Shown in pieces: positions 1-52,872 of a stretch of DNA of 64,000 bases. The notes under the pieces were generated by a model. That model searched no databases. It was not told the origin of the DNA and saw only the letters and a list, made by a program, of their open reading frames with translations. The DNA comes from an uncultured Gammaproteobacteria bacterium (lineage in GTDB: Bacteria > Patescibacteriota > Patescibacteriia > Magasanikbacterales > UBA922). The number at the start of each line of letters is the position of its first letter. Positions within the stretch are counted from its first letter, which is position 1. Location of the stretch: NCBI GenBank assembly GCA_964349825.1, contig CAYGHM010000002.1:620-64619 (forward strand). Direction: 5' to 3'. The translations under genes were made by a program, and so were the position numbers.

Positions 1-666
1 TATATCAAAGAACATTTCACCAAACCACATCAGGAAATCTGGCGAGAACTAAAAGGAGAATATGTCTATCCGGTGCTTATGGAAGAAAAAAATTCCTATG
101 CCTCAATTTCCAAAACTCGCACCTTTACTCCAGCAAGCAGCAACAAAGATTTTGTCTATGCGCAATTATTAAAAAATGTTGAAAACGCCTGTATTAAATC
201 TCGCCAATACAATCTCGTTGCCAAAAAAATTGTTATCTTCCTAAAAACACAAGACTTTCAGATCCGTGCCCTTGAAGCAACTCTCCCACGTGCATCGGCG
301 TACCCAAATGACCTTGCCCCTATTGTCAAAGAACTATTCGATGTCCTCTACAATCCAAAAACACTGTATCGCACGACCGGTATTACATTGAGCGAGCTCG
401 CCGATCATGTTCAAATACAACAATCCCTTTTTGAACCACAGCACATACTTGAAAAAATGGAGGGTGTCTATGCCAGCATTGATACATTGGCCCAAAAATT
501 TGGCAAGCACACGGTGCATCTCGGCAGCAGCCTCCCCGCTCACGCATTTGATGCCAAAGAAGAAAAACAACAGACAGAAACATCATGGAAAAAACTTTTA
601 CAACTGACCGGAGAAACAGCACGCATGAGATTAAATATACCGATGTTGGCATTGCAATTAAAATAG
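1..666 (+). CDS. Y-family DNA polymerase (DinB/UmuC-like), C-terminal part; the gene starts upstream of the window
   Basis: The frame is open from base 1. The translation ...SISKTRTFTPASSNKDFVYAQLLKNVENACIKSRQYNLVAKKIVIFLKTQDF resembles the little-finger region of Pol IV-type polymerases. The listed ORF 73..666 is only the internal Met. Confidence 0.45.
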   Translation, partial: YIKEHFTKPHQEIWRELKGEYVYPVLMEEKNSYASISKTRTFTPASSNKDFVYAQLLKNVENACIKSRQYNLVAKKIVIFLKTQDFQIRALEATLPRASAYPNDLAPIVKELFDVLYNPKTLYRTTGITLSELADHVQIQQSLFEPQHILEKMEGVYASIDTLAQKFGKHTVHLGSSLPAHAFDAKEEKQQTETSWKKLLQLTGETARMRLNIPMLALQLK

Positions 667-5317: not shown

Positions 5318-5346
5318 TTGACAAAAGCAGGCAGTCATGATATACT
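5318..5346 (+). promoter_or_regulatory. sigma70-type promoter TTGACA-N17-TATACT (extended -10 TGa) driving GC-rich cassette 1
   Basis: tatTTGACAaaagcaggcagtcaTGaTATACT. Confidence 0.5.
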
Positions 5347-5517
5347 CACCCGTTCTCAAGATAGTGTATCTGAGGTTCTTTGACAACTGAATACCCTCGT
5401 AGCAGGGAGAAACATGCCCACGGACCCCGTGGCATGAGGTTCAAACCCCCATGCCCATTCGCGGGCATTATGTCACTCTCTGTTACAGAACCATTTCCCC
5501 AACACCACGAGGACACC

Positions 5518-6351
5518 ATGACGACGAAACGTACCCTCATCAGTGTGGCGACGGTCGCCATGCTCGCCCTCATCTCGGCTTCGGCATTCGCTGCCAAGCC
5601 CCCCAAGAAGGTCGCACCCTCGAGTGTGGCCGACAACAAGGAGGAGAAAGTTGCTGCTGAAGCGGCCCTGGAGCACCACTCCAAAGGAAACTTCGACAAA
5701 GCCGGCGCGCTCTACGCGGCCGCCTTCGAGAAGTGGAAGCGTGCCACGCACATCTTCAATGCAGCTCGGTGCTACCACAAAGGGAAGATGTTCGTCCGTG
5801 CAGTTCAGCTGTACAACCAGTATCTGGAACTCGCCGACGCGAGTGAAGAAGGCAAAGCTGAGGCGCGGCAGCATATCGCCGCGATCGAAGCTGAAACCGC
5901 CGTCACTACCCCGACCAAACCAGCCACCAGCAAGGAGCCGCCCACTCCGCAACCAGCAGATCCCACCACAACAACGGTGACGATCACCAAGCCCACGCCA
6001 CCATCGGCTCCAGACCGAATTCTCACCTGGAGCATGATCGGCGGAGGCAGTCTCCTGGCCCTGGCTGGAGCTGGCGGTCTCATCACGGCAGAGGCCAAGA
6101 TGACCGACCTCAACGGCAACGGCATGGACTGGGCCACACCCAATGCCCAAGCGACCTACAAGGACAGTGTCTCGGAGGTCAAAACCCTCCGCACCATGTC
6201 CATGGTGGGCGCCGGTATCGGACTCGCGGCTGCAGGCTGGGGCGTCTACCGGTTCTTTACGGAGCCAGAAGCACCTCCGTCGGGAATGCCGACGGTCCAC
6301 CCAACCATCACCCAGGACGGCGCTCGCGTCGTACTGGAATGGAAACGGTGA
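5518..6351 (+). CDS. GC-rich (about 60%) secreted or membrane-anchored protein: signal peptide, TPR-like helical domain, Pro/Thr-rich linker and two C-terminal TM helices
   Basis: SD GAGGA lies 5 nt before the ATG. The protein reads MTTKRTLISVATVAMLALISASAFA...HIFNAARCYHKGKMFVRAVQLYNQYLE...PTKPATSKEPPTPQPADPTTTTVTITKPTPP...LLALAGAGGLITA. Codon GC3 is far above the background. A GC-rich hairpin terminator follows at 6376-6420. Confidence 0.55.
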   Translation: MTTKRTLISVATVAMLALISASAFAAKPPKKVAPSSVADNKEEKVAAEAALEHHSKGNFDKAGALYAAAFEKWKRATHIFNAARCYHKGKMFVRAVQLYNQYLELADASEEGKAEARQHIAAIEAETAVTTPTKPATSKEPPTPQPADPTTTTVTITKPTPPSAPDRILTWSMIGGGSLLALAGAGGLITAEAKMTDLNGNGMDWATPNAQATYKDSVSEVKTLRTMSMVGAGIGLAAAGWGVYRFFTEPEAPPSGMPTVHPTITQDGARVVLEWKR

Positions 6352-6559
6352 CCAAGACAAAACCAAGGAGCACTGAGTGGGGCGGCAGGCTGGATCATCC
6401 AGACCTCGCCGCCCCACTCGGAGATATACACAGAGAGTGACATACCCAAACAATAATATATAACGCATAATAGGCGTTTTTTTATTTGGTAAATTCTGGT
6501 AAACTAGATAAGAATAGAGAATAGTGAATGAAGAATAAAGAATTTAATATTAATAATAT

Positions 6560-7301: not shown

Positions 7302-7339
7302 CCCTTATTATACAAAAATCCGCCATAAAGGCGGATATG

Positions 7340-7423
7340 TGGGCCGGGCATGATTCGAACATGCGAAGGCGCAAGGCCAGCAGATTTACAGTCTGCCCCG
7401 GTTGACCGCTTCGGTACCGACCC
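7340..7423 (-). tRNA. tRNA-Tyr (GTA), type II with long variable arm
   Basis: The reverse complement GGGTCGGTACCGAAGCGGTCAACCGGGGCAGACTGTAAATCTGC...TGTTCGAATCATGCCCGGCCCA has acceptor, anticodon and T stems that pair, and an anticodon loop CUGUAAA. Confidence 0.75.
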
Positions 7424-7502
7424 ATCTAACTCATTTACAATGACAGCTAGTGATTATTAGTTAACAACGGTTAGTTAGCAATCATTAAATGTCCATTAAT
7501 TG

Positions 7503-7594
7503 TGGGCCGGGCATGATTCGAACTGCGAAGCCCGCCAACGTCGGCGGGCAGCAGATTTACAGTCTGCCCCGGTTGACCGCTTCGGTACCGACCC
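7503..7594 (-). tRNA. tRNA-Tyr (GTA), second copy, with an unusually long GC-rich variable arm
   Basis: Same acceptor, D, anticodon and T arms as copy 1. The variable arm is TGCCCGCCGACGTTGGCGGGCTTCGCA and the total length is about 92 nt. Confidence 0.6.
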
Positions 7595-7688
7595 AAGATC
7601 AATATTCAATTTTCAATTTCTAATTTTTAATTGCATTCCACTTAGCACATAAATGGAAATTGAGAATTGAAAATTGGAAATTTCTAAT

Positions 7689-8818: not shown

Positions 8819-9562
8819 TTATGGAAGCTTTTCTGCTAGATGAATAATACGAGTAAATGAGTCAATATGAGTAGACGCGCTCCCAATAAGTACCCCATCT
8901 ATAGGATCTAGTGATAGATATGATACCACATTCTTTTCATCTACACTACCACCATACAGTACAGGAATCGTCATCTTGGTATATTGACGAAGTTCACGTT
9001 TGATGAACTGGTGGATTTCTGCCGCTTCGACAGAATCGCAGGCCTCACCTGTTCCGATTGCCCATACCGGCTCATAGGCAACTATCACCGTTGCATGTTC
9101 AGGAATAACAAGTCCGTCAAATAATTTCATTAACTGCTTTTTCAAACGGTACTCTCGCTTCCCTGCTTCCCGATCCTCTTTTGTTTCTCCAATACAGACA
9201 ACGGGAATAATGCCAGCATCAAACGATGCTTCTAATTTCTTACGAGCGGCTTCGTCTGTTTCACCAAAGATATGGCGACGCTCGGAGTGTCCAACCAATG
9301 CATACGAACAACCGAGCTCTTTATATATGTGCGCTGACACTGCACCAGTATAAGCACCCTTTGGTACCCATGCCACATTCTGTGCTCCTACACCAATTGC
9401 ACTACCACGACACGTGGCAATGACATCAGATGATGCAATGGAGATAGGAAAAACAACAACCGTATTCGTGCTAGGCAAATGCTCTGTCACCAATTGCTTT
9501 GCCAACATATTGGTTTCTGAAAAATCAAGATACATTTTCCAGTTAGCAAAGATATATTTCAT
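8819..9562 (-). CDS. tpiA: triosephosphate isomerase
   Basis: IFANWKMY, ALVGHSERR and IAYEPVWAIGTG are canonical TIM motifs. Confidence 0.9.
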   Translation of the reverse strand: MKYIFANWKMYLDFSETNMLAKQLVTEHLPSTNTVVVFPISIASSDVIATCRGSAIGVGAQNVAWVPKGAYTGAVSAHIYKELGCSYALVGHSERRHIFGETDEAARKKLEASFDAGIIPVVCIGETKEDREAGKREYRLKKQLMKLFDGLVIPEHATVIVAYEPVWAIGTGEACDSVEAAEIHQFIKRELRQYTKMTIPVLYGGSVDEKNVVSYLSLDPIDGVLIGSASTHIDSFTRIIHLAEKLP

Positions 9563-9587
9563 ATTTCAAGTATTAAGAGGCGGATAG

Positions 9588-10847
9588 TTAAAAGATGATA
9601 TTTTTTTCTTCTACATCTCCAATAATACCAACACGCATTTCTTTTAATACGAATAATTTTTTCGCAACTTTTTGTACATCTTCCTGGGTTACCGCATCAA
9701 TAAACGCAATGCGTTCCTGTGGAGTATATATTTTATCCATAAATAAATGCTGTTTGGCATACCAACCTGCCTGCGCACTCGAATCTTCCATAGACAAGGT
9801 TAACCCGCCATGAATATGCGTCTTCGCATCAGCAAGCTCTCGTTTTGACACGCCCTTCTCCGCCATCCGTTGGACTTCTTCTTGAATTGCCTTTATTGCT
9901 TTATTCAAATTTTTTGCCTCAAGTCCAGCGCGGATAAACACATATCCTTTGTCACGGAACGTATCCGATCCACTGCGAACACTATACGCTAGTCCTAACT
10001 TTTCTCGAATACGGACAAAAAGACGTGAACTCATAGAACCACCCAGAATCGTATTCATGACGGAAACAGCTGGATTGTGTGGATCAGTATGAGAAAAACC
10101 AGGAAATCCGAGCATGAGCTGTACTTGATCCGTCTTTTTATGCTGGATAAACAAACGCTCTTTTTTTCCACTACTTCCAAAACGAGCCGGCTCAAAAGGG
10201 CGGATTTTTGGCGCTTTTCCAACATGACCACCAAAATATTCTTCCACAATCTTTTTGGTTTCTTCGGTAATACGTCCCGCAACCACAATAGTCATATTTG
10301 CAGGATGGTAATACTTATTATGAAAAGCAAGGACCTCGTCACGCTTATACGACAAGACATGTTTTTCTGTTCCAGCAATATCTGACCCAAGCGCTCCTTC
10401 AAACATAACTTGTTCAAAGACGCTATCGATATTCATGAGTGGATTATCATGATACATCCGAATTTCTTCCACAATAACATGTTTCTCTTTCTCCATTTCT
10501 TTTGCATCAAAAACAGAATGGAATAACATGTCTGAAAGAATATCGCAAGAAATATGCGTATATGATGCGTCAGTTTTAATATAATACCCCGTATATTCTT
10601 TTCCCGTAAACGCATTATACTCTGCACCAAGCCGATCAATTTCACGGGTCAAAATAAACGAGTTTTTTCTTTTTTTTGTTCCTTTAAACATGAGATGTTC
10701 AATATAATGAGAAACACCTCGCATCTTTTCTGTCTCATAACGCGATCCAACCGGATACATGATCATGACCGTCGCCGAAGCAGTGTCTTTTTGCGCTACC
10801 AAAATAACATTTGCTTTGTTTTTTAATTGATATTGTTCGTAATGCAT
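9588..10847 (-). CDS. M16-family zinc peptidase (pitrilysin/insulinase-like)
   Basis: The inverted zinc motif HYIEHLMFKGT (HxxEH) is present, at about 419 aa. Confidence 0.8.
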   Translation of the reverse strand: MHYEQYQLKNKANVILVAQKDTASATVMIMYPVGSRYETEKMRGVSHYIEHLMFKGTKKRKNSFILTREIDRLGAEYNAFTGKEYTGYYIKTDASYTHISCDILSDMLFHSVFDAKEMEKEKHVIVEEIRMYHDNPLMNIDSVFEQVMFEGALGSDIAGTEKHVLSYKRDEVLAFHNKYYHPANMTIVVAGRITEETKKIVEEYFGGHVGKAPKIRPFEPARFGSSGKKERLFIQHKKTDQVQLMLGFPGFSHTDPHNPAVSVMNTILGGSMSSRLFVRIREKLGLAYSVRSGSDTFRDKGYVFIRAGLEAKNLNKAIKAIQEEVQRMAEKGVSKRELADAKTHIHGGLTLSMEDSSAQAGWYAKQHLFMDKIYTPQERIAFIDAVTQEDVQKVAKKLFVLKEMRVGIIGDVEEKNIIF

Positions 10848-19770: not shown

Positions 19771-21258
19771 TTACTTTCTTTTTTTCTTAGAAACATTGAA
19801 TCCTAAATATTTACCAAACATCATATGTGTTACCGCATCAATAGCGGGAATTGCACTTACAAAAATCATAGAAATAGGAACTAGTACCCACTGTAATGCC
19901 ATAGTAATCATTTTATAGCGCGGTTCAGAATCGGGCATTTTTGGCAAAAGTGGAAAACTCAATACAGCGGTCATAAACAGTCCAACCATAGAAATAGTCA
20001 TGAGCGTTTCGAGCATGTGTGGCGCATTAAAATATAATGCCGTTTGGCGAACTTCCTCACCGGCCACCCACATAGGCAGACGACCAAGAATAGTAATGAT
20101 AATTGCCACCAAACACCATGACCATTTTCCTTCCCATTCCAAAAAAATATATTTTGCTTTTTTCCACAGAGGAATTTTATTTCCTTTTAAACGGAATTCC
20201 CACAATAAATACGGCACGTGTTCCACGCCCCACGCCCAACGGCGTTGTTGTTTGTACAAATTTTTAATACTCTGCCACCACGAATCATCACGCGGCGTAT
20301 CCATAGACACAGGAAGATACATCGGTGTAACAGAATAATCTCCATTATACGTCAAAAGACATTGATAAAAAATACGAGAATCCTCACTCACAATACGCTT
20401 ATCATGAAACCCGGCATCAACCAGTGCGCGAAAACTCAATGAATGCGATGAAAATGTCACTAGTCCGTCCTGACGCGCAAGCGAGGTAAGCATCCAGAAG
20501 GTGGTACCAAATGCCATAATACGCAATACCGCAGGCGACTCCCACATATTATTATTATACAAAGCAATCGGCTGATAAGAACTTCTCGTTGGATTTGAAT
20601 GCGTACAGTATAAATACGTGAGATACCCAAAATACTGTGGATGGCACACGGTATCAATATCAAAAATAGTCGCAATAATATCATCGTATTCCCAGCCTTT
20701 TTTATCAATATATTTTTTTGCTTCCCGTTCTGCATAATGAAGATTGGATCCTTTGCCCGGAATTTCTTCTTGCAAATGCATAGGATGACAGGTGCCAATA
20801 ATCGTTCCAAAGCTATCGCCGTAAGTCTGTTTTACCAATTGCAAAATATGTTCATGATGTGTTTTAGCCCGTTCTTCACCAGCAATGACAATTAAAAACT
20901 GTTCTTTGTCATACGCGGCGTCACAAACACTTTGTATCGCAGTATGCACAACATCCCACGTCTCATCATACAATGTCAAAAATACAACATGTCTTTTTTT
21001 CTTCCAATCCGGAATCTCATGAAATAATTTATCTTTCCAATCAAGGCGTCTAGCCACACGGAAACGAGTCCAGGCAACCGTAAGATAAAAGGCAAAATTA
21101 AGTACTTTTAATACCCAATAAATATCAAATACAATAATAAAATAGATCATCCATAGAGGACGAACGTACGCAAGAAATAAAGACAAAATAAGAGTCAACC
21201 AAATAGAAAGACCCGGGAGCACTTCGTACAACCGATACCGATGATAATCCGACAACAT
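19771..21258 (-). CDS. processive family-2 glycosyltransferase (cellulose/chitin-synthase-like) with multiple TM helices
   Basis: The QQRRWAWG (QxxRW) motif, D-rich loops (LYDETWD, IFDIDTV) and N- and C-terminal TM helices are present. Confidence 0.65.
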   Translation of the reverse strand: MLSDYHRYRLYEVLPGLSIWLTLILSLFLAYVRPLWMIYFIIVFDIYWVLKVLNFAFYLTVAWTRFRVARRLDWKDKLFHEIPDWKKKRHVVFLTLYDETWDVVHTAIQSVCDAAYDKEQFLIVIAGEERAKTHHEHILQLVKQTYGDSFGTIIGTCHPMHLQEEIPGKGSNLHYAEREAKKYIDKKGWEYDDIIATIFDIDTVCHPQYFGYLTYLYCTHSNPTRSSYQPIALYNNNMWESPAVLRIMAFGTTFWMLTSLARQDGLVTFSSHSLSFRALVDAGFHDKRIVSEDSRIFYQCLLTYNGDYSVTPMYLPVSMDTPRDDSWWQSIKNLYKQQRRWAWGVEHVPYLLWEFRLKGNKIPLWKKAKYIFLEWEGKWSWCLVAIIITILGRLPMWVAGEEVRQTALYFNAPHMLETLMTISMVGLFMTAVLSFPLLPKMPDSEPRYKMITMALQWVLVPISMIFVSAIPAIDAVTHMMFGKYLGFNVSKKKRK

Positions 21259-21383
21259 AAAAAATTATGGGTAGCGACGCGATTTATCGCGCCGTACCCA
21301 AAAATAACAACCACTCTTAGAAATAACGTAGATATCATACGTTAAAATCGCCAAAAAGTCTATCACATGAACACCGCCAATTC

Positions 21384-21412
21384 TTGACAAAAAACAATGT
21401 TCCTGATATGCT
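21384..21412 (+). promoter_or_regulatory. sigma70-type promoter TTGACA-N17-TATGCT for GC-rich cassette 2
   Basis: ttcTTGACAaaaaacaatgttccTGaTATGCT. Confidence 0.45.
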
Positions 21413-21518
21413 CTTCGATTCAGATGGCAGATCCAGGCCTATTGCCTCATGTCTCTGAAAGACAATTAAAAAATGATTCGTGGCATAGTACAAAAAAGGA
21501 GGTACTCTCCCGCGAATC

Positions 21519-22139
21519 ATGTCGAAACGCGGTCATCCTGACTCATTGACCCAGTCCAAGCAAGGATACACCATGTACACCAACCCCAGTGAATCTCTCG
21601 CCCTCATCCTCCGTACCATGGGAGGTATCGCCCTCGTGCGCCCTGCGCTACCTGTCGACAATATCGACGTTGCAAAGTACTTGCGCCAGCGTTGGGCAAT
21701 GACGACGCCATCGGTAGAAATCGTCGTGGCGAACGCCTCGGAAAGCGGTATCGAAATCACGATGGCGGGGATTGTCGGCAGGAGCCCACTCACCGCCTCG
21801 GTGGACATTATGCCGCTCCCGCAGTGGCAACCGATCCAGTCAGCAAGCACCATCCTCGCACGATGGCATTCGCGGATCGACGAACTCATCCTTCGGCTAC
21901 ATCCATCTCCCGTACCGACTGATCGGCTCGTCGCCGTCATCGACGACAAGCAAGCGCTTGTCGAGCTGGCTCGACGGGTGATGTTCGAGCTGAATCTGGA
22001 GATGGACTTCTTGCACAAGGCCAGCGATTTCCTCGACCGGCCTGGTGATGGTCTCATCATCGACCGCCATGGCAATATCACGGACATGCCCGTGATTCCC
22101 CGCTGCCTCAAGCACGAGTCGGTCCTTGCCTTGGGCTAG
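21519..22139 (+). CDS. GC-rich hypothetical protein (no recognisable domain)
   Basis: About 60% GC; a GGAGGT SD lies upstream; MYTNPSES is an alternative start. A terminator hairpin CCCCCGGTATGCTTCATCGCTGCCGGGGG plus T-run follows at about 22255-22290. Confidence 0.45.
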   Translation: MSKRGHPDSLTQSKQGYTMYTNPSESLALILRTMGGIALVRPALPVDNIDVAKYLRQRWAMTTPSVEIVVANASESGIEITMAGIVGRSPLTASVDIMPLPQWQPIQSASTILARWHSRIDELILRLHPSPVPTDRLVAVIDDKQALVELARRVMFELNLEMDFLHKASDFLDRPGDGLIIDRHGNITDMPVIPRCLKHESVLALG

Positions 22140-22328
22140 TAGTACTCTGTACTAGCCCGACCACCGCTCCTTCTTGAGAGTAGTTTCCCAACCCAGTGTC
22201 TTTTTTCCTGCCCTACCCTCCCGACGTAATGTCGGGGACCAAGGCGGACGTTCTACCCCCGGTATGCTTCATCGCTGCCGGGGGTTCGTCATTTTTATGC
22301 TTATTTTAGCGTAAATATGGCAAAAGTA

Positions 22329-22357
22329 TTGACAAAACTGCCGAATTATGATACACT
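22329..22357 (+). promoter_or_regulatory. sigma70-type promoter TTGACA-N17-TACACT (extended TG) for GC-rich cassette 3
   Basis: taTTGACAaaactgccgaattaTGaTACACT. Confidence 0.45.
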
Positions 22358-22571
22358 TTGCCGTTCGGTAAACAATGAAATTACCCCTTTGGGAGACCTT
22401 TCTTGTACCCGATGATCTTTGACAAGAGAATAATGTGTGAAAAATGATTTGTGGGATTTTCAGTTTCTTAGGGAGATTGAAAAACCCACAAATCGACGCA
22501 AGGCGCGTCCGAATGTGGTAACCCCTGCTGATCCGTTAAGTCGGATTGGCCATTGCTCAACGGAGCTCATC

Positions 22572-23186
22572 ATGAACGACTTGCAATTCGTCCTCAGTCG
22601 CGGCAACAAAATCTTCTTCGTCCGCCACAGCCTTGCCGCCCCGGCCGCTGAAGGCCAAGAAGATTTCAACCGTCCACTGACCCAGAAAGGCCGAGAGCTC
22701 GCCAAAAAGACCCGCAAGGAAATCGACCTGAGCAAGGTCGTCTACGTCGCCTACAACCCGGCCATTCGGTGCAAGGAAACGGCCGACGTGCTGATGGACG
22801 GCCTCAAGACGTCGCGTCTCTCCATGCCGCTCGCCTATGGCCTCCACCCGGATTCACCGGGACGGGAGGTGATTTTCCCGGTCTTCCTCCAAATCCGGGA
22901 TTCGTCCCTCGCCGACTACGCCAAACATGGCTGTGCGGAAGCCTTCACGCTGCATGCAACCACGATCCTCGGTTACATCAACAGCGTGTTGAACGACCTG
23001 CCCGAGCTGTACGGCGATCTCATGATCGTCACCCACGGCACCATGGCCGCGGCCCTCGCCCTGCACCTGGGCCAGGCGCTGAAATTCAACACCGATGAGG
23101 TGATGAACTTCAAGCCGACGGAGTGCATGGTGATCACGGTCAGCAAGGACGGCATCACCTGCCACGACTCGCAACTCGTAGACTAA
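22572..23186 (+). CDS. GC-rich histidine-phosphatase-superfamily protein (SixA/PGAM-like)
   Basis: IFFVRHSLAAP (RH-type catalytic motif) and THGTMAAAL. The start was taken at MNDLQF with a GGAG SD; the AT-rich 5-prime extension of ORF 22437.. is probably leader. Confidence 0.5.
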   Translation: MNDLQFVLSRGNKIFFVRHSLAAPAAEGQEDFNRPLTQKGRELAKKTRKEIDLSKVVYVAYNPAIRCKETADVLMDGLKTSRLSMPLAYGLHPDSPGREVIFPVFLQIRDSSLADYAKHGCAEAFTLHATTILGYINSVLNDLPELYGDLMIVTHGTMAAALALHLGQALKFNTDEVMNFKPTECMVITVSKDGITCHDSQLVD

Positions 23187-23314
23187 CGACATCATTAGTC
23201 TGGGTAGATACTCGCCTGACTACAATGATGATTGTTCACACAATCCCCCTCTTGTCGAACACCCCTGGTTGCACATGCACCCAGGGGTTTCGCTTTTTTA
23301 GAGACAAAAAAATA

Positions 23315-23347
23315 TCACCCTAATGTTTAGGATGATATTTTTTTATT
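23315..23347. terminator. bidirectional terminator hairpin between convergent genes
   Basis: aaaaaaATATCACCCTAAtgtTTAGGATGATATttttttt. Confidence 0.5.
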
Positions 23348-23361
23348 TAAAAACAAATTTT

Positions 23362-24786
23362 TTATAGAATAGTAACACATCCATTATTCGCATCGACTTC
23401 AACATACATACCGCTCTCCAATAATTTTGTTGCCACTTTGGTGCCGATCACACATGGCTTTTTCATCTCTCTCGCAATAATTGCTGCATGGCAAGTAATA
23501 CCACCTTCATCAGTGACAAACCCAGCAGCACGTTCCATGGCAGGCACCATATCGGGTGTCGTCATAGCAGCAACAATAATATCGCCAGCTTCAACCAACA
23601 AAAGATCTTTTTTATGTTTAATTTTTTTCACCTTTCCTCTCACGAGACCACGATACGCGACAGCCCCCTTAATTTCCTCTATTTCTTCTGCTTTATGGAG
23701 ATATGTTTCACGCCAAATTACTTCATCCTCTTTTCTGTCTGAGAATTGTACATTCCCCGGTTCAAGAGCGAGTAACGCAAACCAGTCATCACGACGAGAT
23801 TTTACATCTAAACCAATTGTTTTCCACTGAGCAAGTTCATCCGCACGCAAGGCAGAAATTTCCTCAAGTGTCACCCCCATTCGTTTTGCAATTTCTTCCA
23901 AAAGAGGTACGATCCGAGCATACGCGCATGCGAGATAATCGGTACGGCATGTACGAAAATAAACTATCTCTTTGGCAATCGTTACCACATGTCGAATGTC
24001 ATCATCAGCATGCAATGTGTTGAGCAACTCTTTCGACCGCTGTAAATGTATATTTACGTCCTCCTTCATTTCATGAAGTACTTTTTCGCAATCATTTTCC
24101 AATACCTGATTTAATCGCACGCGAACATCAGAAACATCCCACGCTGTACCACTTCCACCACGAATATTTGTCCACCCAAATTCCTGAGCATGGTCTTGTA
24201 AAAGCTGATCTAACTTATCAGATGGATTTTCCAACTCGCCTCGCTGAATCTGAGCGCCAATCTCAAGTAATGCATATTTTTCAACCGTCTGCACATTTAC
24301 CTTTTCAGGAAAACTAATAATTGCCAATTCCTCCTCAAGATCAGCTCTGTTTTTCAAAAAATCACGCAAACGATCTTCTATCGGAAATTGCAGGCCGTAT
24401 CCTGGCAATGTAACCGCAAACGTCTGAAACATTGTGAGAAAATTATCCCACATAGCCATGAGTTCACTGTCTTTTTTCGAAGTAAAATCATTTTTTTCTA
24501 TCTCTTTCGCATACGCAACCATCTTTTCACCATAGGTATATATTGTATCAAATACACCAGCAAGAAATCCCCGCTCCTCGGTTTCTTTTTTGAGTAATTT
24601 TTCAATAAGCTCAAAACTTTCCGGTCCGTACCACCATTCACCATTAAAATATCCGCAAGTAATATACGTATTATCAAGATGATACAGTGTCTTATAATGT
24701 TCAGGCGTTGAAAGTCCCCGAACATAAATGTCCGCAATCAAAACAGTGTATGGACGAGTAACAATAAGATTTAATTTGTTGTGCAT
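23362..24786 (-). CDS. PEP-utilising-enzyme swivel-domain protein, paralog 4 (unique N-terminal domain + C-terminal phosphohistidine domain)
   Basis: The C-terminus GDIIVAAMTTPDMVPAMERAAGFVTDEGGITCHAAIIAREMKKPCVIGT is the PEP-utilisers mobile domain with its catalytic His. Confidence 0.75.
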   Translation of the reverse strand: MHNKLNLIVTRPYTVLIADIYVRGLSTPEHYKTLYHLDNTYITCGYFNGEWWYGPESFELIEKLLKKETEERGFLAGVFDTIYTYGEKMVAYAKEIEKNDFTSKKDSELMAMWDNFLTMFQTFAVTLPGYGLQFPIEDRLRDFLKNRADLEEELAIISFPEKVNVQTVEKYALLEIGAQIQRGELENPSDKLDQLLQDHAQEFGWTNIRGGSGTAWDVSDVRVRLNQVLENDCEKVLHEMKEDVNIHLQRSKELLNTLHADDDIRHVVTIAKEIVYFRTCRTDYLACAYARIVPLLEEIAKRMGVTLEEISALRADELAQWKTIGLDVKSRRDDWFALLALEPGNVQFSDRKEDEVIWRETYLHKAEEIEEIKGAVAYRGLVRGKVKKIKHKKDLLLVEAGDIIVAAMTTPDMVPAMERAAGFVTDEGGITCHAAIIAREMKKPCVIGTKVATKLLESGMYVEVDANNGCVTIL

Positions 24787-24788
24787 AA

Positions 24789-26117
24789 TTAATTTTTAGT
24801 AAGAATGGTAATTTTTCCTATATGCGCATCTACCTCGACCAGGTCTCCGTCCTTCAAAACTTTTGTTCCAATCTTTGTCCCAATGATACACGGCTTATTC
24901 ATCTCTCGAGCGACAATTGCTGCATGCGATGTAATACCACCAATATCAGTGACAAATGCCGCAGCGCGACGCATACCCGTCAAAAAATCAGGTGTTGACA
25001 TGGCAGCGACGAGAATATCACCTTGTTCAATCTTCGCGCATTCTTTTGCATGAAGCACTACTTTTACTTTTCCAACTACTTTCCCCGGCTGCGCGCACAT
25101 CCCGGTGATTTCTGTTGGCCGCTCTTCTGTGCTCTTCACTTGTTCCTCTTTTCCTTCAAATAATTCAACAGCGCTATCAGTAATTTCCAAAATAAAATTA
25201 TTGCGTGTATCAAATTTCGGCTTGATGTACATGCGGCCGTGCAATACATTTTTTACCTCCTCAATGCGCATGTGTAATAATTCATCATACTGCACAATAT
25301 CGGCAAAACATATCATGACCATTTCTCGAAATAAATATGTGCCATAACAATTGGCTTCCCATTTTTCCGTACGCAATCGAAGAAGTTGCTCAGCATACCG
25401 GACAAATGGTGAATCAACTGCTTCCATTTCTTTTTGTTCTTCGGGTGCATGATGAAGACTATCACGAAGCATCACATACGCTTCAATAACGGTCCATGGA
25501 TGGCCTTTAAAATATTTCATCCCGAGGTATCCATATTTTTTACAAAACGTTTGCAGATCTTCTGTAAGAGAACTCGATAATTCATGTAATTCTTTTCCTT
25601 CCGTATCAAGCAATTCATCACGATATCTGTTTGCCAACTCCGTCAACAGCACTGATGCGCGTGTCGTATCTGTCACAGCAGAACGCATCGCATGCGGTGG
25701 AATACCTTGTCTCGTCAATTCAGCGCTCAACCCGGACTCCAAAACAAATCGCGCAATAGATCCGGTAGCTCGCATTGCTTCATCGAAATATTCATCAATA
25801 AGTTCGGGATGCTGACGCGCAGTATGGAGTTCTGTTTCAAATCTTTTTAAAAATGTTTTGAAGCGATCAAAAATAGTTTCAATCTCATGAATAAGATTAG
25901 TATATTGTTCATCCGTAAGAAGTTTCGTTCCCATTTCCGTATACTGCGCCAATGACCAATTGATATCCCCATTAATATGATTGTACTGAATATACGGATA
26001 CTGAAATGAAAAACCTAATTTCGTAAAATCGGTATATGTATAAATACCACTCAATACCAAATCCTGGGTCAATAAATCAGACCGATGGTTGACAATAATT
26101 TCCCAATCTCTTTGCAT
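24789..26117 (-). CDS. PEP-utilising-enzyme swivel-domain protein, paralog 3
   Basis: C-terminal GDILVAAMSTPDFLTGMRRAAAFVTDIGGITSHAAIVAREMNKPCIIGT; the N-terminal ~330 aa are unrelated in sequence to the other paralogs. Confidence 0.75.
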   Translation of the reverse strand: MQRDWEIIVNHRSDLLTQDLVLSGIYTYTDFTKLGFSFQYPYIQYNHINGDINWSLAQYTEMGTKLLTDEQYTNLIHEIETIFDRFKTFLKRFETELHTARQHPELIDEYFDEAMRATGSIARFVLESGLSAELTRQGIPPHAMRSAVTDTTRASVLLTELANRYRDELLDTEGKELHELSSSLTEDLQTFCKKYGYLGMKYFKGHPWTVIEAYVMLRDSLHHAPEEQKEMEAVDSPFVRYAEQLLRLRTEKWEANCYGTYLFREMVMICFADIVQYDELLHMRIEEVKNVLHGRMYIKPKFDTRNNFILEITDSAVELFEGKEEQVKSTEERPTEITGMCAQPGKVVGKVKVVLHAKECAKIEQGDILVAAMSTPDFLTGMRRAAAFVTDIGGITSHAAIVAREMNKPCIIGTKIGTKVLKDGDLVEVDAHIGKITILTKN

Positions 26118-26121
26118 ATAT

Positions 26122-27540
26122 CTACGCTTTAGTCAGCACTTTAATAGTCCCTTTACTCGCATCGACTTCTACTATATCCCCATCTTTCAATATAGTCGTC
26201 GCCACTTTGGTGCCTACAATACAAGGCACACCAAGCTCGCGAGAAACAATCGCCGCATGAGAAGTAAGTCCGCCAGTATCCGTGACAACGGCGCTTGCCT
26301 TTTTCATGATAAAAACATATTCAGGTGTTGTCATGGAAGTAACCAATACATCTCCATCATCAAACCCTACCACATTATGCGGATCAAGCACAATTTTTAC
26401 TTTCCCTGTCACCAGACCCTTTCCTTTACAGGCAATAATACCACTAAAATTTTCAGTACTAGCGTCTACTTGCACATCCACATAAAGTTTCCAGCCGTCG
26501 AGTGTTTCTGATGAGCCCAAAAACTGAACGGTGTTTTCACTTCCGTACACACCAAAAGCTTTCTTTCTCTCATTCGGATCAACAGCGACCGTACGACCAT
26601 TTAGTAGTTCAATAATTTCTGCCCCGGAACAATTCAATAACGTGTTCACATCGAACTGTGGCAAACGCTGTGCTGCCTCAACAAGCAAAATATGCTTATA
26701 ATGCAAATAAATCCAGATATCTTTTTTTCGTGTATCCTGCCATACGATTGCGTCGGTAATCGCTTCTGCAATTGCCATAACTGAATCAGGCAATTTATAT
26801 TCTTCCTGTGTTTCAATTTTTTGCTGACGCACGAGAGCCAATCTTTCCTCTACCTCTTTTCGTATATCCAGAGAAAGTGTTTTTTTTCTTTCTGCAAAAA
26901 ATTCTACTGGCAATACTTCTACATTGGCATAACTATTTCGCAACCAAAAATATTTTTGTTGATGTACAGCAATATCATCCGTCTCGACCAAATCGATTTC
27001 TTCTTCCTGATAAAATGATTTTCCTTCAGGGGCAGTCAATATTTCCATGACATGCATCATCTGTTCTTCTGGAACAAACGGAACAAGCGAACGACGCAAT
27101 ACATCACTTGATCCATAGTTTGATAATTCTGGCAGAATGGCATATACCCAAAATGTCTTCAATAATTTTCCAAAACGTAATAACACATCTTGAAAGGCTT
27201 CGAATGATAAAAGGGACAAGTCAGTAGCGCCAATCTCTTGATTAAGCATGGTAAAATCATGATGTGCCACCATCCACTGTGCGCGAACAGACTCTCGTTT
27301 CTCACGTGGAAGCATCATTTCCAGAAACAGTTTTTCTCCATTTCGCTGCAATGCATCAGCTTCATGCATCCACACCATTCGATTCTCTTTAAATAAAGCT
27401 AAAAAATCTGGCCATCCATATCCAGGAAATTCCTCTGGATAGTCAATAAAAAAAACATCAAAACAATCTGCATAATAAATGTAGAATGGCGTAGGCCCCC
27501 ATTTGAAAATTTCTTTATGTGGATCAAGGTATTGTTTCAT
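26122..27540 (-). CDS. PEP-utilising-enzyme swivel-domain protein, paralog 2
   Basis: C-terminal GDVLVTSMTTPEYVFIMKKASAVVTDTGGLTSHAAIVSRELGVPCIVGT. Confidence 0.75.
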   Translation of the reverse strand: MKQYLDPHKEIFKWGPTPFYIYYADCFDVFFIDYPEEFPGYGWPDFLALFKENRMVWMHEADALQRNGEKLFLEMMLPREKRESVRAQWMVAHHDFTMLNQEIGATDLSLLSFEAFQDVLLRFGKLLKTFWVYAILPELSNYGSSDVLRRSLVPFVPEEQMMHVMEILTAPEGKSFYQEEEIDLVETDDIAVHQQKYFWLRNSYANVEVLPVEFFAERKKTLSLDIRKEVEERLALVRQQKIETQEEYKLPDSVMAIAEAITDAIVWQDTRKKDIWIYLHYKHILLVEAAQRLPQFDVNTLLNCSGAEIIELLNGRTVAVDPNERKKAFGVYGSENTVQFLGSSETLDGWKLYVDVQVDASTENFSGIIACKGKGLVTGKVKIVLDPHNVVGFDDGDVLVTSMTTPEYVFIMKKASAVVTDTGGLTSHAAIVSRELGVPCIVGTKVATTILKDGDIVEVDASKGTIKVLTKA

Positions 27541-27543
27541 AAA

Positions 27544-28548
27544 CTAAGTTATTTTTCTAATAATTCCTCTGTTCGCATCAACCTCAATAATATCTCCATC
27601 TTTCAACAATTGCGTTGCAATCTTCGTTCCAATAACGCAAGGAATCTTCATCTCTCTAGAAACGATAGCGGCGTGACAGAGTAATCCACCCTCATCAGTA
27701 ACAAAGGCTCCGGCCAATTTCATTGCTGGTAAAAAATCCGGAGTTGTCATTGGCGAAACCAAAATATCACCCTGAAGTACTTTTGATAAATCTTCCTTGG
27801 TATACACAATTTTTACCTTTCCTATTACAGTGCCTTTATACCCTATCTGTCCGCTAATTTCTTTTGCATCAACAACGTCATCAGATGTCAATTCAAAGGC
27901 TTTTTCTGTTGCAAGTTTTTCTATACTGAGAGGATAAATATTTGCAGCACAATCCTCCACAAATAGATTGCTTACATCTGAAATTCTAGAAAATTCTATA
28001 TATTCTATTAATTGTTTTACCTGTATAACTTTTACCTGTTCTAAGGGTAACCCGCTTGATACAAGAGATCTTCTTATAAAATCATCAGCGAGGCTCCAAA
28101 GATCATCTCCTTCTCTCTGTTCTTTACTCCAGCTACGTATATCATCCGGCCATTCTTCTGTCATTGAAGAAATAAACATGACGTGATTTGAAAAACGAAG
28201 GTCGTTAAATAGTCGACACATTTCCAAAACGTCTTTTGGATATACATCTTTTTTTTCTGAAAGTTTTCTTATGCTTTCGGCGATTCGTGTATAATCTTTT
28301 TTTGTTTGTTCAAATAATACACTATCAGTAAGTAGGCTATCTTTTATCTTATTATTCCAGTAATCAAACGATTCCTTGTTTAACCAAAATTCAACAACTC
28401 CATTTTTTACATACTTCAGGACCGGACTACTCAACACCGGATCAAAAGAATCAACCAAGGCTTCTGGAAAATGATAAAAACCAGAAGATGCTAGTAAAAA
28501 TGTAATATCTCTGGAATATGTTTTTTCAAAAACAATTTTTTTATTCAC
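27544..28548 (-). CDS. PEP-utilising-enzyme swivel-domain protein, paralog 1 (shortest, 334 aa)
   Basis: C-terminal GDILVSPMTTPDFLPAMKLAGAFVTDEGGLLCHAAIVSREMKIPCVIGT. Confidence 0.75.
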   Translation of the reverse strand: MNKKIVFEKTYSRDITFLLASSGFYHFPEALVDSFDPVLSSPVLKYVKNGVVEFWLNKESFDYWNNKIKDSLLTDSVLFEQTKKDYTRIAESIRKLSEKKDVYPKDVLEMCRLFNDLRFSNHVMFISSMTEEWPDDIRSWSKEQREGDDLWSLADDFIRRSLVSSGLPLEQVKVIQVKQLIEYIEFSRISDVSNLFVEDCAANIYPLSIEKLATEKAFELTSDDVVDAKEISGQIGYKGTVIGKVKIVYTKEDLSKVLQGDILVSPMTTPDFLPAMKLAGAFVTDEGGLLCHAAIVSREMKIPCVIGTKIATQLLKDGDIIEVDANRGIIRKIT

Positions 28549-35355: not shown

Positions 35356-35426
35356 ATAACAATTTTGTAACAACGAGATTATATAAGAAGTAGACATAGT
35401 TGTCAAGTGTCATTTTTCTAATATCG

Positions 35427-35455
35427 TTGACTCCATACCACATTTCTGGTATAAA
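35427..35455 (+). promoter_or_regulatory. sigma70-type promoter TTGACT-N17-TATAAA for GC-rich cassette 4
   Basis: cgTTGACTccataccacatttctggTATAAAt. Confidence 0.45.
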
Positions 35456-35531
35456 TCTCTCAATTCTCTTAACCATGGTGGTGTAGGGAAATACAGTGCA
35501 GATGCGGTCAAAAACCGCATGCGAGGACAAG

Positions 35532-36314
35532 ATGAAAACTACCGCCCAAGGCCATTCGATCGTCAATGTTCATGACATGATGCGGCTGATCCGCGAGCAT
35601 GCAGCCACGCACAGGGCGCACGGCTACGCGCCTGTGTTCTGTCTGGACGTGGACGGTCTCCTGATGGACAATCGACACCGGACCCTGGCCATCCTGCGCG
35701 AACTCGTCCTGGAGGCAGACATCCCCTGGTTCACTCAGGCCATGAGCCAGATGACCCTGGAGGATATCGGCTACGGCGCAAAAGAGACGGTTCGGGGCCT
35801 GCATCAGAAATATGGCTTCGATCCCGTCTACACGTCGAAGGTGATGGTCGAGGAACTTGCCAACACGGTCTACAAGTTCTGGTTCGATCGGTTCTTCACC
35901 AACGAGTATCAGGTCCATGATGTCCCCATCATCGGCGCCCTCCGCCTCGTACAGGAGCTTCGAGACGCCGACATCGGCATCGTGTATGTCACAGGCCGGG
36001 ACGAACCGGGCATGGGAGTCGGGTTCCGAAACTCGCTCCAGCAGCATGGCTTCCCTCTCCCCGGCACGGAGGGGGTGCGCGCGATCCTGAAACCCAAATT
36101 CGAGATGAAAGATCCGGAGTTCAAGAAGAACACGCTCGAACTGCTCCAAACGATTGGTATGCGCGTCATTGGCCTCCTCGACGACAACACGCACAACGTG
36201 AACATCGTCGTGGACCTCTGCAACCTGCCCATTCTCTACGTCAGCTCCTCGGTTTCAACACTCACCAACCTCCACCCCGGAGCATTGGTGCTCGAGAGTT
36301 TCACCACCAGCTAG
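35532..36314 (+). CDS. GC-rich HAD-superfamily hydrolase-like protein
   Basis: GAGGA SD before ATG (MKTTAQG); HAD motif I FCLDVDGLLMDN; a later GRDEPG...LDDN. A GC-rich terminator CGCCCGCC...GGCGGG plus T-run follows. Confidence 0.5.
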   Translation: MKTTAQGHSIVNVHDMMRLIREHAATHRAHGYAPVFCLDVDGLLMDNRHRTLAILRELVLEADIPWFTQAMSQMTLEDIGYGAKETVRGLHQKYGFDPVYTSKVMVEELANTVYKFWFDRFFTNEYQVHDVPIIGALRLVQELRDADIGIVYVTGRDEPGMGVGFRNSLQQHGFPLPGTEGVRAILKPKFEMKDPEFKKNTLELLQTIGMRVIGLLDDNTHNVNIVVDLCNLPILYVSSSVSTLTNLHPGALVLESFTTS

Positions 36315-36451
36315 TAAGTGTTCCCGACTGGATGTCGAGACACTTCGCACAAGAGAACGCCCGCCCAGCCTTTTAGGTTGAGGCGGGTTGTTCATTTTTA
36401 TAGACAAAATAAAATATTCTTTTTTAAAGATACGCCAAACAAATCTACTTT

Positions 36452-37635: not shown

Positions 37636-37664
37636 TTGACAAAAAACTCAATTTATGATAAACT
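37636..37664 (+). promoter_or_regulatory. sigma70-type promoter TTGACA-N17-TAAACT (extended TG) for GC-rich cassette 5
   Basis: agtaTTGACAaaaaactcaatttaTGaTAAACT. Confidence 0.45.
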
Positions 37665-37778
37665 TCTTTGTTATTTATGTTGGTATAAATAACGGATATT
37701 TTGCTTATCTTCTCTTATGGAAGGTTATAAAAATACCCGTTAGTTTCCAAACACACTCAATACGGGTTGGAGGTGCAC

Positions 37779-38159
37779 ATGCGAAAGTGGACTCTCGTCG
37801 TTATCCTCTGGGATCACGGCAGCAGCTACGAAGCGACCACAATGAAGCTGGTGCGGAGGAAGGACGTGGAAGGATACCTGAAATCCGTGACAAAACACGG
37901 GCAAACACAGGCCATCCCGGGGTTCTTCCAACAGCAGAAGGTGGCGTTCCGGACGTTTTCCGAAGCGTTCCCTGGCCACGTCATCCCCCTGAAGGAGGAA
38001 AAGCGTCCCAGCTGGAAAACGCCGCTGGCAATGCTGACACTTTCCGTGGACAGGGAATCAGTGCTGCGACTCGCGGCCATCCTCAAAGACAGGCCAATCG
38101 CTGTCTTCGAGGGTCATCGCCGTCAAGGTGCCCCACCAGTACAACTACTGTGCGTGTAA
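37779..38159 (+). CDS. GC-rich small hypothetical protein (127 aa)
   Basis: GGAGGTG SD 5 nt before the ATG (MRKWTLVVILWDHGSSYEA...); about 58% GC; followed by a chain of hairpins. Confidence 0.45.
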   Translation: MRKWTLVVILWDHGSSYEATTMKLVRRKDVEGYLKSVTKHGQTQAIPGFFQQQKVAFRTFSEAFPGHVIPLKEEKRPSWKTPLAMLTLSVDRESVLRLAAILKDRPIAVFEGHRRQGAPPVQLLCV

Positions 38160-38285
38160 TACGCAAAATACCCCATCTTCCACCATACGGTGGGGTAGAG
38201 CGATATCTGACTTTATCGCTCCATCTGTTTGCAACAGATGTTCTCGGCTTCACAGCCTGTGAGGAAGGAAAGGTCAGACAACTTG

Positions 38286-38342
38286 GACCGCCCGCAATCA
38301 CTTAAAATTATAAAACATTATAATTTTAAGTGACGGGCGGTC
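38286..38342. terminator. very long perfect hairpin closing cassette 5 (about 24-bp stem)
   Basis: GACCGCCCGcaaTCACTTAAAATTATAAaacaTTATAATTTTAAGTGACGGGCGGTC. Confidence 0.55.
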
Positions 38343-52303: not shown

Positions 52304-52386
52304 CAAAAACAGACAAACAAAAACACCCCTCTTACGGGGTGTTTATTTTTCTAATATGGCCAGCCCTGAAAACACTTGTGGTCATA

Positions 52387-52815
52387 TCAGGGCACTTGGC
52401 CGGGCACCTCCTTGGGGTAGTTGATCGGGCGCAGATAACCGCGCCGGGTGACGTAGTTCGTCAGGTAGCTGCTCGTGTAGCTGAAAAAGACGGGCGACAC
52501 ACACGACATCAGGAGCTCAGGCGAATCATTCCACCAATGGCCTGTGAAACTCATCGCAAACGTGAGCGATCCAGCAGCAAGACTCCCCAAGAAATACGAA
52601 CGAAACGCATTGCGAATGGGAGAAAAATGCTGGACAAGCCGTGCGGATACACCAGTTGACAGGAAGCTCGCACATGCCTGGGCGAAGGCAGCAGAAGTGG
52701 CCAAGCCTACCCCATGCTCCCAATTCACACAACAGGCAATTATTGCCTGAAACACAGCGGCCGCACAAGCGAACTTCAGGTTGAACAGGTTGTGATACAT
52801 CAAACGCCAATTCAC
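52387..52815 (-). CDS. GC-rich small membrane protein (hypothetical), GTG start
   Basis: Minus-strand promoter TTGACG-N18-TATACT (52841-52870), SD GGAGGTGA and a GTG start. Hydrophobic segments AAAVFQAIIACCV and FLGSLAAGSLTFAMSF. About 58% GC. The + strand ORF 52294..52659 was rejected. Confidence 0.4.
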   Translation of the reverse strand: MNWRLMYHNLFNLKFACAAAVFQAIIACCVNWEHGVGLATSAAFAQACASFLSTGVSARLVQHFSPIRNAFRSYFLGSLAAGSLTFAMSFTGHWWNDSPELLMSCVSPVFFSYTSSYLTNYVTRRGYLRPINYPKEVPGQVP

Positions 52816-52872
52816 TCGTCACCTCCACTTTGTCGCTATCAGTATAGGCATGGAAAGGTGTTTACGTCAATA

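Follow-up and report, generated by a model that had tools for sequence, protein, structure and literature searches.

Two adjacent GC-rich cassettes, cassette 2 and cassette 3, lie between positions 21384 and 23299 of the 64,000-nucleotide stretch analysed here (the window; contig CAYGHM010000002.1, positions 620 to 64,619). Our results support their description as two autonomous single-gene transcription units with a composition unlike that of their surroundings. Judged from comparison with related loci, the genes are resident and lineage-restricted and are not fresh imports. The full explanation we propose, to which we give an even chance, is that these resident tandem units carry divergent genes of the histidine-phosphatase fold (SixA/PGM), and that the leader of cassette 3 works by antitermination of the ribosomal RNA (rRNA) type. 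The flanking GT2 glycosyltransferase gene (19771-21258, minus strand) shows 64-76% identity to 80 loci in metagenome-assembled genomes of Candidatus Magasanikbacteria and other Patescibacteria, and by this measure the bacterium harboring both cassettes is an AT-rich member of the candidate phyla radiation (CPR), Candidatus Magasanikbacteria. Relatives' loci used for comparison carry L-numbers (L002, L003, L086 and so on); L004 duplicates L003.

The compositional borders are abrupt. The mean G+C content (GC) of the whole window is 0.41. In 200-nt steps, GC goes from 0.36 (21300-21499) to 0.56-0.605 (21500-22299), returns to 0.37 (22300-22499), rises again to 0.565-0.615 (22500-23199) and drops to 0.33 (23300-23499). 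The initial annotation had described two GC-rich cassettes around an AT-rich spacer, and the computed profile agrees, with sharp steps and not a smooth course. GC at third codon positions (GC3) is 0.72 in the coding sequence (CDS) of cassette 2 and 0.81 in that of cassette 3, against 0.30-0.40 in resident genes. Since GC1 is about 0.6 and GC2 about 0.4 in both genes, the anomaly is mainly synonymous. The C content of the cassette mRNAs is 0.31-0.34 vs 0.15-0.21 in resident genes, and the non-coding distal leader and 3' untranslated region (UTR) are likewise GC-rich. An assembly chimera was ruled out, as five independent assemblies share these junctions.

Each unit is composed of a promoter, a leader of 160-215 nt, one CDS and an intrinsic terminator. 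Promoters had been predicted at 21384-21412 and 22329-22357 (plus strand), and both are present as near-consensus sites with an extended -10. In cassette 2 the -35 TTGACAAAA is followed after 11 nt by the extended -10 TGATATGCT (TTGACA-17-TATGCT), and in cassette 3 the same -35 TTGACAAAA and 11-nt distance precede TGATACACT (TTGACA-17-TACACT). Each agrees with 10/12 consensus positions and has the TG of the extended -10. The form TTGACAAAA, 11 nt, TGATAnnCT is common to cassettes 2 and 3 and to the GC-rich units at 5318 and 37636, while the cassette 2 architecture recurs in L002, L003, L086 and L087. In all, the region has 9 promoter-like sites, compared with 3.6 +/- 2.1 in shuffled sequences. 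The GC hairpins with T-runs said to end both cassettes also proved to be strong. The cassette 2 terminator (22247-22296, plus strand) has the form GACG-ACCCCCGG...CCGGGGGU-CGUC plus AUUUUU, its hairpin at 22247-22290 preceding the T-run (folding energy dG -26.2, z -4.0), and the extra cassette of L002 has the same terminator at its 3' side. In cassette 3 (terminator 23254-23299, plus strand) a hairpin at 23254-23293 is followed by a T-run (dG -23.4, z -5.6). Both have loops longer than 8 nt and for that reason escaped a simple terminator scanner. An AT-rich inverted repeat (I1, 23294-23356), possibly a bidirectional terminator, lies between cassette 3 and the PEP-utilizer gene convergent with it.

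Such islands, as the initial annotation implied, could be recently inserted foreign DNA: islets from a GC-rich donor (e.g. the host of an episymbiont), still unameliorated between resident genes. This would agree with a GC3 of 0.72-0.81 vs about 0.33, with the C-rich mRNA, and with most of the 80 Magasanikbacteria loci having nothing comparable at the equivalent site. It would also agree with cassette 3 alleles that diverge far beyond the strain background, with the frequent position of relatives' other GC-rich single-gene islands beside tRNA genes, and with the GC-rich genomes of known Patescibacteria hosts (preprint 10.64898/2026.06.21.733656). For cassette 2, recent transfer is contradicted by descent. 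L003/L004, L086 and L087 have orthologues at the equivalent position, divergent from GT2; in L086 and L087 the orthologue lies directly upstream of this gene, among conserved surrounding genes. Cassette 2 is thus syntenic in at least four relatives. Their identity is 55% in L003/L004, 36% in L086 and 29% in L087, and their GC3 is 0.70-0.80 vs 0.29-0.44 for all neighbours. Between the window and L003, synonymous divergence (dS) is 1.20 for GT2 and 1.07 for cassette 2, while non-synonymous divergence (dN) is 0.035 and 0.316, respectively, about 9-fold higher in cassette 2. Synteny and a dS equal to that of the flanking gene indicate that cassette 2 was inherited together with its neighbours; it has same-locus orthologues and shows no decay of composition, the reverse of what a recent transfer calls for. 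By these alignments cassette 2 is vertically inherited at a fixed site, with a protein whose rate of evolution is about nine times that of its neighbour and a GC3 kept through saturating synonymous change. Furthermore, the promoters and leaders of the two cassettes are mutually homologous and of resident type, and searches of 5.8 billion and 1.84 billion sequences gave no homologue in GC-rich organisms. The only inverted repeats seen are leader hairpins and terminators and not attC sites, an integrase domain is absent among the neighbours examined, and direct-repeat junctions were not found. Recent acquisition is therefore improbable as a general account, although single alleles of cassette 3 may ultimately have arisen in this way. 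Selection or biased gene conversion keeps the GC3 excess stable, and this excess is not the decaying trace of a transfer. At the position of cassette 2, divergent from GT2, L033 (~9360-9870) and L045 (9358-9867) have a 169-aa gene on the minus strand (…GKTIFVVTDGGHNRYPDPD…), with GC3 of 0.68-0.69 vs 0.51 for GT2.

Cassette 3 behaves differently from its neighbours. Between the window and L002, dS is 0.10 for the PEP-utilizer gene and 0.067 for cassette 2 vs 1.03 for cassette 3, and the cassette 3 proteins share 56% amino acid identity while the flanks are 96-100% identical. Along the alignment, the promoter and early leader have an identity of 0.80-0.97, the part from leader hairpin P1 through most of the CDS 0.35-0.80, the final ~60 nt of the CDS 0.88, and the 3' UTR and flank 0.90-1.00. 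L002 has an extra RHG-phosphatase cassette between cassettes 2 and 3, with its own promoter, leader and terminator, and in L003 cassette 2 is followed by a further RHG gene. L031, a more distant relative, has a GC3-rich RH phosphatase of the same leader layout between a PEP-utilizer gene and GT2, and L033 has a further one, of the same leader layout, elsewhere on the contig. The syntenic L031 gene (1100-1887, minus strand) is broken by a stop codon, past which the conserved C-terminal ...GYEITRDGITIH... segment continues in another frame; it may be a pseudogene or reflect an assembly error. From these comparisons, the cassette 3 slot is hypervariable. Its alleles and copy number would be exchanged between strains by recombination through the conserved ends, with two homology arms: the promoter and the proximal part of the leader at the upstream end, and the final part of the CDS with the 3' UTR and terminator at the downstream end.

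The same observations may be read as a recombination hotspot in which GC-biased gene conversion acts across the whole exchanged segment, UTRs included, the boxA-like string and the hairpins being ordinary leader features. Allele replacement and copy-number change between near-identical strains, GC enrichment that reaches the non-coding distal leader and the 3' UTR, and conserved flanks usable as homology arms all speak for it. However, cassette 2 looks vertical, with a dS like that of its neighbour, and is yet as GC-rich as cassette 3. The difference between GC3 of 0.8 and 0.33 also far exceeds the reported effects of GC-biased gene conversion in bacteria. In addition, the position of the leader motif and its identity with rRNA boxA, described below, are unlikely to be due to chance. 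We consider this account doubtful as a full explanation, but it can coexist with the one we propose. The GC-rich UTR and distal leader agree better with biased gene conversion or another regional process, or with selection that acts on the entire mRNA, than with pure codon selection.

The cassette 2 CDS had been placed at 21519-22139. Its end stands, whereas the start is most likely the ATG at 21573 (21573-22139, plus strand; 188 aa), which is preceded by AAGGA and aligns with the starts of the orthologues; the ATG at 21519 is missing or out of frame in them. The product had been called a hypothetical protein, and scans of Pfam, NCBIfam, PHROG and PADLOC indeed gave no match. The histidine-phosphatase fold, which went unnoticed, emerges from a structure model built on the six known members (pLDDT, the predicted local distance difference test score, 73; pTM, the predicted template modelling score, 0.76). 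The predicted model shows the alpha/beta fold expected of a member of the histidine phosphatase superfamily. The strand-1 motif is LVRP, vs LVRH of the enzymes, with R23-P24 in place of RH, and there are no invariant histidines among the six members, so that the RHG nucleophile and the second histidine of the superfamily are both missing. Taken with the predicted fold, this indicates that the protein is most likely a catalytically dead pseudo-phosphatase, and its role is probably that of a non-catalytic binder or regulator. The family is rare, with 2 matches among 5.8 billion proteins and 4 representatives among 1.84 billion clusters (full HMMER profile search). Non-coding RNA was rejected as an interpretation of the cassettes on account of dN/dS of 0.18-0.48 and the conserved fold and motif.

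Downstream of the cassette 2 CDS, the 3' UTR (22140-22246, plus strand) folds into conserved small hairpins. Together with the terminator it shows 83% identity between the window and L003, vs 66% for the CDS, where synonymous sites are saturated. It is a candidate for a functional element of the 3' UTR or for a small RNA derived from the 3' end. The hairpins vary in their loops or stems, and the UTR is absent from L086 and L087.

The cassette 3 CDS (22572-23186, plus strand; 204 aa) encodes a member of the histidine phosphatase superfamily. In a search with hidden Markov models it matches His_Phos_1 (PF00300) above the curated gathering cutoff (30.4 bits vs 21.7; E 3.8e-7), over the N-terminal residues 14-79 only. 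The RH-motif phosphatase proposed in the initial annotation is thus upheld, while "SixA-like" applies only at the level of fold and superfamily: the protein falls below every NCBIfam equivalog cutoff, including that of SixA (TIGR00249; 22.9 vs 74.5 bits). A profile of five cassette 3 alleles and paralogues has its best matches among SixA structures (4hbz at 3.5e-8). R18, H19, R66 and H155 are invariant in 5/5 of these sequences, the catalytic roles of R66 and H155 being assigned by alignment, and the protein is probably an active phosphatase. Matches are few (1-4 among 5.8 billion proteins), and PADLOC and PHROGs yielded no defence system and a single weak phrog of unknown function. In L002, the public gene calls at 1194-1943 and 2533-2949 are on the wrong (minus) strand, the real RHG open reading frames (ORFs) being at 1263-1916 and 2296-2904 on the plus strand. 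Because these phosphatase genes were miscalled, the rarity of the cassette families is partly an annotation artefact.

RH phosphatase cassettes with active-type residues adjoin PEP-utilizer genes in the window, in L002 and in L031, and a cassette 2 homologue adjoins one in L085. In the window, tandem paralogues of 474, 442 and 472 aa and a 334-aa ORF occupy 23362-28548 on the minus strand. In the first two, the only domain found by the Pfam scan is a PEP-utilizer mobile (phosphohistidine swivel) domain at the C terminus. By tblastn vs L090, the third (26122-27540) has this C-terminal region as well, and the stretch of the 334-aa ORF also has a tblastn match to the same L090 region. This cluster is missing at the equivalent locus in L086 and L087.

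The leaders of the two cassettes and of their relatives align over ~150 nt. The similarity suggested earlier is thus real, but the strings cited for it, "ccgttc" and "ctttgacaa", occur in the cassette 3 and 5318 leaders and not in that of cassette 2; a covarying hairpin in both leaders, and a boxA-like element in that of cassette 3, had escaped notice. The cassette 2 leader has a hairpin P0 (21419-21459, plus strand), followed by a degenerate boxA-like stretch (AAGACAAUUA), and a hairpin P1 (inverted repeat I3, 21473-21520, plus strand; GAUUCGUGG...CCGCGAAUC) with GGAGG in its loop. The P0 stem is kept with altered sequence in L003, L086 and L087, in an alignment judged by eye. Cassette 3 has a P0 hairpin at a boxB-like position (22365-22412, plus strand), and a P1 hairpin (inverted repeat I2, 22446-22494, plus strand; GAUUUGUGGG...CCCACAAAUC). 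P1 is the best-supported element of the aligned leaders: its helix comprises 18 pairs, 94% of the cells are paired, and compensatory double changes affect 8 of the pairs, with G-U wobbles in addition. None of 500 column shuffles reached the observed values, and in slid registers pairing drops to 26-46%. A leader peptide MI[RCH]GI[VFL] in the 5' arm of P1 was ruled out, as its non-synonymous changes are paired with compensatory changes in the 3' arm. A covariance model of the leader, run over 1.47 Mb of Magasanikbacteria loci, recovered only its source sequences and L004, plus one weak match in L061 (E 0.036), which indicates that this version of the leader is confined to a narrow clade. Rfam 15 matched only tRNAs and the L10 leader in the whole window at gathering scores, with nothing for the cassette leaders or UTRs, and gave only noise over 21300-23350 at E up to 10.

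Downstream of P0, the cassette 3 leader contains a single-stranded boxA-like element, GATCTTTGACAA (22414-22425, plus strand), 56 nt after the -10, and 3' of it an alternating GU run, UGUGUG, at a boxC-like position (22434-22439, plus strand). In rRNA leaders, a boxB hairpin is followed by boxA and by an alternating-GU boxC (PMC6614797), and the order hairpin, GATCTTTGACAA, UGUGUG reproduces that layout. Cassette 3 therefore has the context of an rRNA-type leader, although the energy of the hairpin is not significant by itself. The motif TCTTTRACAA occurs 3 times in the window vs 0.54 expected, two of them at equal leader position. A third exact TCTTTGACAA (323-332, minus strand) has no recognisable promoter upstream, is antisense to the ORF at 73-666 and is probably due to chance. 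In 1.46 Mb of Magasanikbacteria loci, a promoter with CTTT[GA]ACAA within 130 nt was found 6 times, always before GC3-rich genes, namely five RH phosphatases and the unit at 5318. In a metagenome scan for promoter plus motif, the matches listed belong mostly to unrelated bacteria with no ORF downstream, and none of them is a new cassette of this clade. In at least 20 of these metagenome loci, from other organisms, the 5' end of 16S rRNA lies 78-189 nt downstream of the motif, and the genuine 16S leader in L116 has the identical 12-mer GATCTTTGACAA with a hairpin before it. Given its presence in genuine 16S leaders, we read the cassette 3 element (GAUCUUUGACAA, CUUUGACAA) as a putative rRNA-type boxA with predicted Nus binding. 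The hairpins equivalent to cassette 3 P0 have z -3.7 in L031 and z -3.0 in L033. Regarding the boxA consensus GYTCTTTAANA (PMC5725501), the extra cassette of L002 and the motif at 5377 in the window each match 10/11 positions, and the L086 orthologue of cassette 2 comes nearer to boxA (CUUCUUUGAAC), with a partial match in CUUCUUUGAACGG. The cassette 3 leader at 22434-22448 (UGUGUGAAAAAUGAU) is also 87% complementary to its own 3' UTR (23228-23242), 779 nt away. This complementarity, whose core GUGAACA/UGUUCAC is also present in L002, may be likened to rRNA leader-trailer helices, or may have arisen by chance.

The leader may also act in another way. CTTTGACAA could be a DNA-level element, such as a second -35-like box, a sigma-dependent pause or a repressor operator, and P1 could control translation or stability as an attenuator, a target of RNase III or a protein-binding hairpin. 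We see little likelihood in this combination. A site at 22419-22448, TTGACA-18-AATGAT, does score 10/12 as a promoter, but the putative second -10 is not kept in other motif-bearing leaders, and because no conserved -10 follows the motif a DNA-level role is disfavoured. P1 forms a long helix of 18-22 bp, typical of RNase III substrates, and the 3' arm CCGCG in cassette 2 can pair alternatively with a downstream CGCGG. On the other hand, no U-run follows P1, and 50-80 nt separate it from the start codon, so that P1 neither terminates transcription nor masks the ribosome-binding site, and its G-U wobbles point to RNA and not to a DNA-level palindrome.

Under the antitermination explanation, the near-consensus extended -10 sigma-70 promoter would fire strongly, and the nascent cassette 3 leader would present a hairpin, the boxA GAUCUUUGACAA and a GU run, as rRNA leaders do. 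It would thereby load factors of the NusB/NusE type, and RNA polymerase would resist Rho. The threat from Rho would come from an mRNA twice as C-rich as native mRNAs and containing many rare G/C-ending codons: C-rich and, owing to the rare codons, probably slowly translated, it should be a natural Rho substrate. P1 may add control at the RNA level, as a site of processing, stability or protein binding, and the strong intrinsic terminator would insulate each unit. The cassette 3 protein may dephosphorylate phosphohistidine or a small phospho-metabolite, and its candidate partners are the PEP-utilizer swivel-domain paralogues at 23362-27540, which would carry phosphohistidine. Judged by their high dN, their allele turnover and their strong promoters, the cassette genes may serve in host interaction or in an arms race.

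Several observations weigh against this explanation. GATCTTTGACA of cassette 3 matches GYTCTTTAANA at 9/11 positions, with 2 mismatches to a consensus that is gamma-proteobacterial and may not be that of this organism (PMC5725501), and cassette 3 P0 folds no better than shuffled sequences (z -1.0). Cassette 2 has only a degenerate motif (CUGAAAGACAA; CUCUGAAAGACAA), and for this reason the antitermination model applies cleanly to cassette 3 only. No Nus factor or Rho gene is present in the window or in the compared loci, all of which cover this chromosomal neighbourhood only; within the same neighbourhood, tblastn with approximate E. coli Rho and NusB queries gave no match. The literature searched held nothing direct on Rho in Patescibacteria. 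The cassette 2 model comes from a shallow alignment of 6 sequences, and hhalign gives the cassette 2 and 3 families a probability below 1%, with no significant sequence similarity. In the local and global modes run, the sole local alignment places GIALVR on KIFFVR. As the sequence comparison is not significant, the kinship of the two families rests on the predicted fold, their adjacency and the homologous leaders. Finally, the 3' UTR is GC-rich too, and for this a regional bias, such as biased gene conversion, is no worse an explanation than selection at the codon level.

A bolder version of this explanation, which we hold to be very improbable, is that a selected class of genes is written in host-like GC-ending codons behind rRNA-type antitermination leaders. 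The codons would then act as a sensor of the host, or the products or mRNAs would act in the host, and the phosphatase and pseudo-phosphatase pair would be arms-race effectors on phosphohistidine signalling. Codon usage in Patescibacteria is reported to complement that of their GC-rich hosts, and at least one member in culture takes up host RNA (preprint 10.64898/2026.06.21.733656). Genes of this class could therefore be translated efficiently only with host-derived tRNAs or RNA.

Both the histidine phosphatase superfamily and boxA antitermination are already known. Within branch 1 of the former (PF00300; SixA, CobC, PhoE, dPGM, TIGAR), the match of cassette 3 is confined to its N-terminal 65 residues, and cassette 2 has neither detectable sequence similarity nor the two catalytic histidines; with 4-6 members known, each of the two families is nearly ORFan. 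The cassette 3 leader shares with rRNA antitermination leaders (NusB/NusE/NusA/NusG/SuhB) a strong promoter, a hairpin, a single-stranded GAUCUUUGACAA and a GU run, as well as the 12-mer of the 16S leader in L116. Precedents for boxA before protein-coding genes or CRISPR arrays, where it counters Rho, are suhB, a toxin gene, the S10 operon and CRISPR arrays (PMC5725501; PMC7665894). Unlike in rRNA leaders, the element here precedes monocistronic, translated, fast-evolving CPR genes of deviant composition, and a long P1 follows it. Integron cassettes and genomic islets are likewise compact single-gene modules of strain-variable number and content, at a fixed site and of non-host composition. 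However, each unit here has its own promoter, leader and terminator, one member is vertical, and exchange appears to proceed through homology in the leader and terminator. The lgr genes of Protochlamydia amoebophila resemble the cassettes as a GC-rich paralogue family in an AT-rich host-dependent bacterium, but are ~5.6 kb long and encode leucine-rich-repeat proteins, with no shared leader or antitermination signal reported in the part of that paper on which this comparison draws (PMC2216083). The literature searched contained no description of this combination of features, of a persistent compositional anomaly at a fixed locus, of the pseudo-phosphatase family or of P1, and nothing direct on GC-rich genes in Patescibacteria or Magasanikbacteria.

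The window has four more GC3-rich single-gene units, each with a consensus promoter and a terminator: 5318-6480, 35400-36400, 37636-38340 and 52330-52870 (minus strand). The unit at 5318 encodes a signal-peptide/TPR-like membrane protein and has a leader hairpin and a boxA-like TTCTTTGACAA. A HAD/polynucleotide-kinase-phosphatase-like protein adjoining tRNA-Glu is encoded at 35532-36314, an uncharacterised 126-aa protein at 37779-38159, and a small membrane protein at ~52400-52810. GC3-rich (0.77-0.89) single-gene units of unrelated content are also found in relatives, often directly beside tRNA genes (L052 2404-3171, L061 4348-5121, L070 4577-5503, L079 3997-5037, L022 4745-5227 and L010 2991-3380). 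In L052 and L061 the neighbour is tRNA-Glu, as for the unit at 35532 in the window, and the same tRNA-adjacent site holds different proteins across genomes. There are also two adjoining tRNA-Tyr(GTA) genes on the minus strand of the window (7339-7423, 85 nt, and 7502-7595, 94 nt). In Rfam the 94-nt gene reaches only 38 bits; it seems to have an enlarged variable region or an insertion.

These results show that recent import does not follow from a sharp GC island equipped with its own promoter and terminator. The anomaly outlasts saturating synonymous divergence, and some force, either selection on mRNA or codons or biased conversion, keeps two compositional classes in one small genome. Miscalled strands hide such families, which are consequently under-represented in protein databases. 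If the boxA reading is true, Nus-factor antitermination would reach translated, compositionally deviant CPR genes, and protection from Rho would be the reason for the leader. The phosphatase and pseudo-phosphatase pair, strongly promoted, near-ORFan, fast-diversifying and located beside PEP-utilizer proteins, is a plausible host-interaction or regulatory module.

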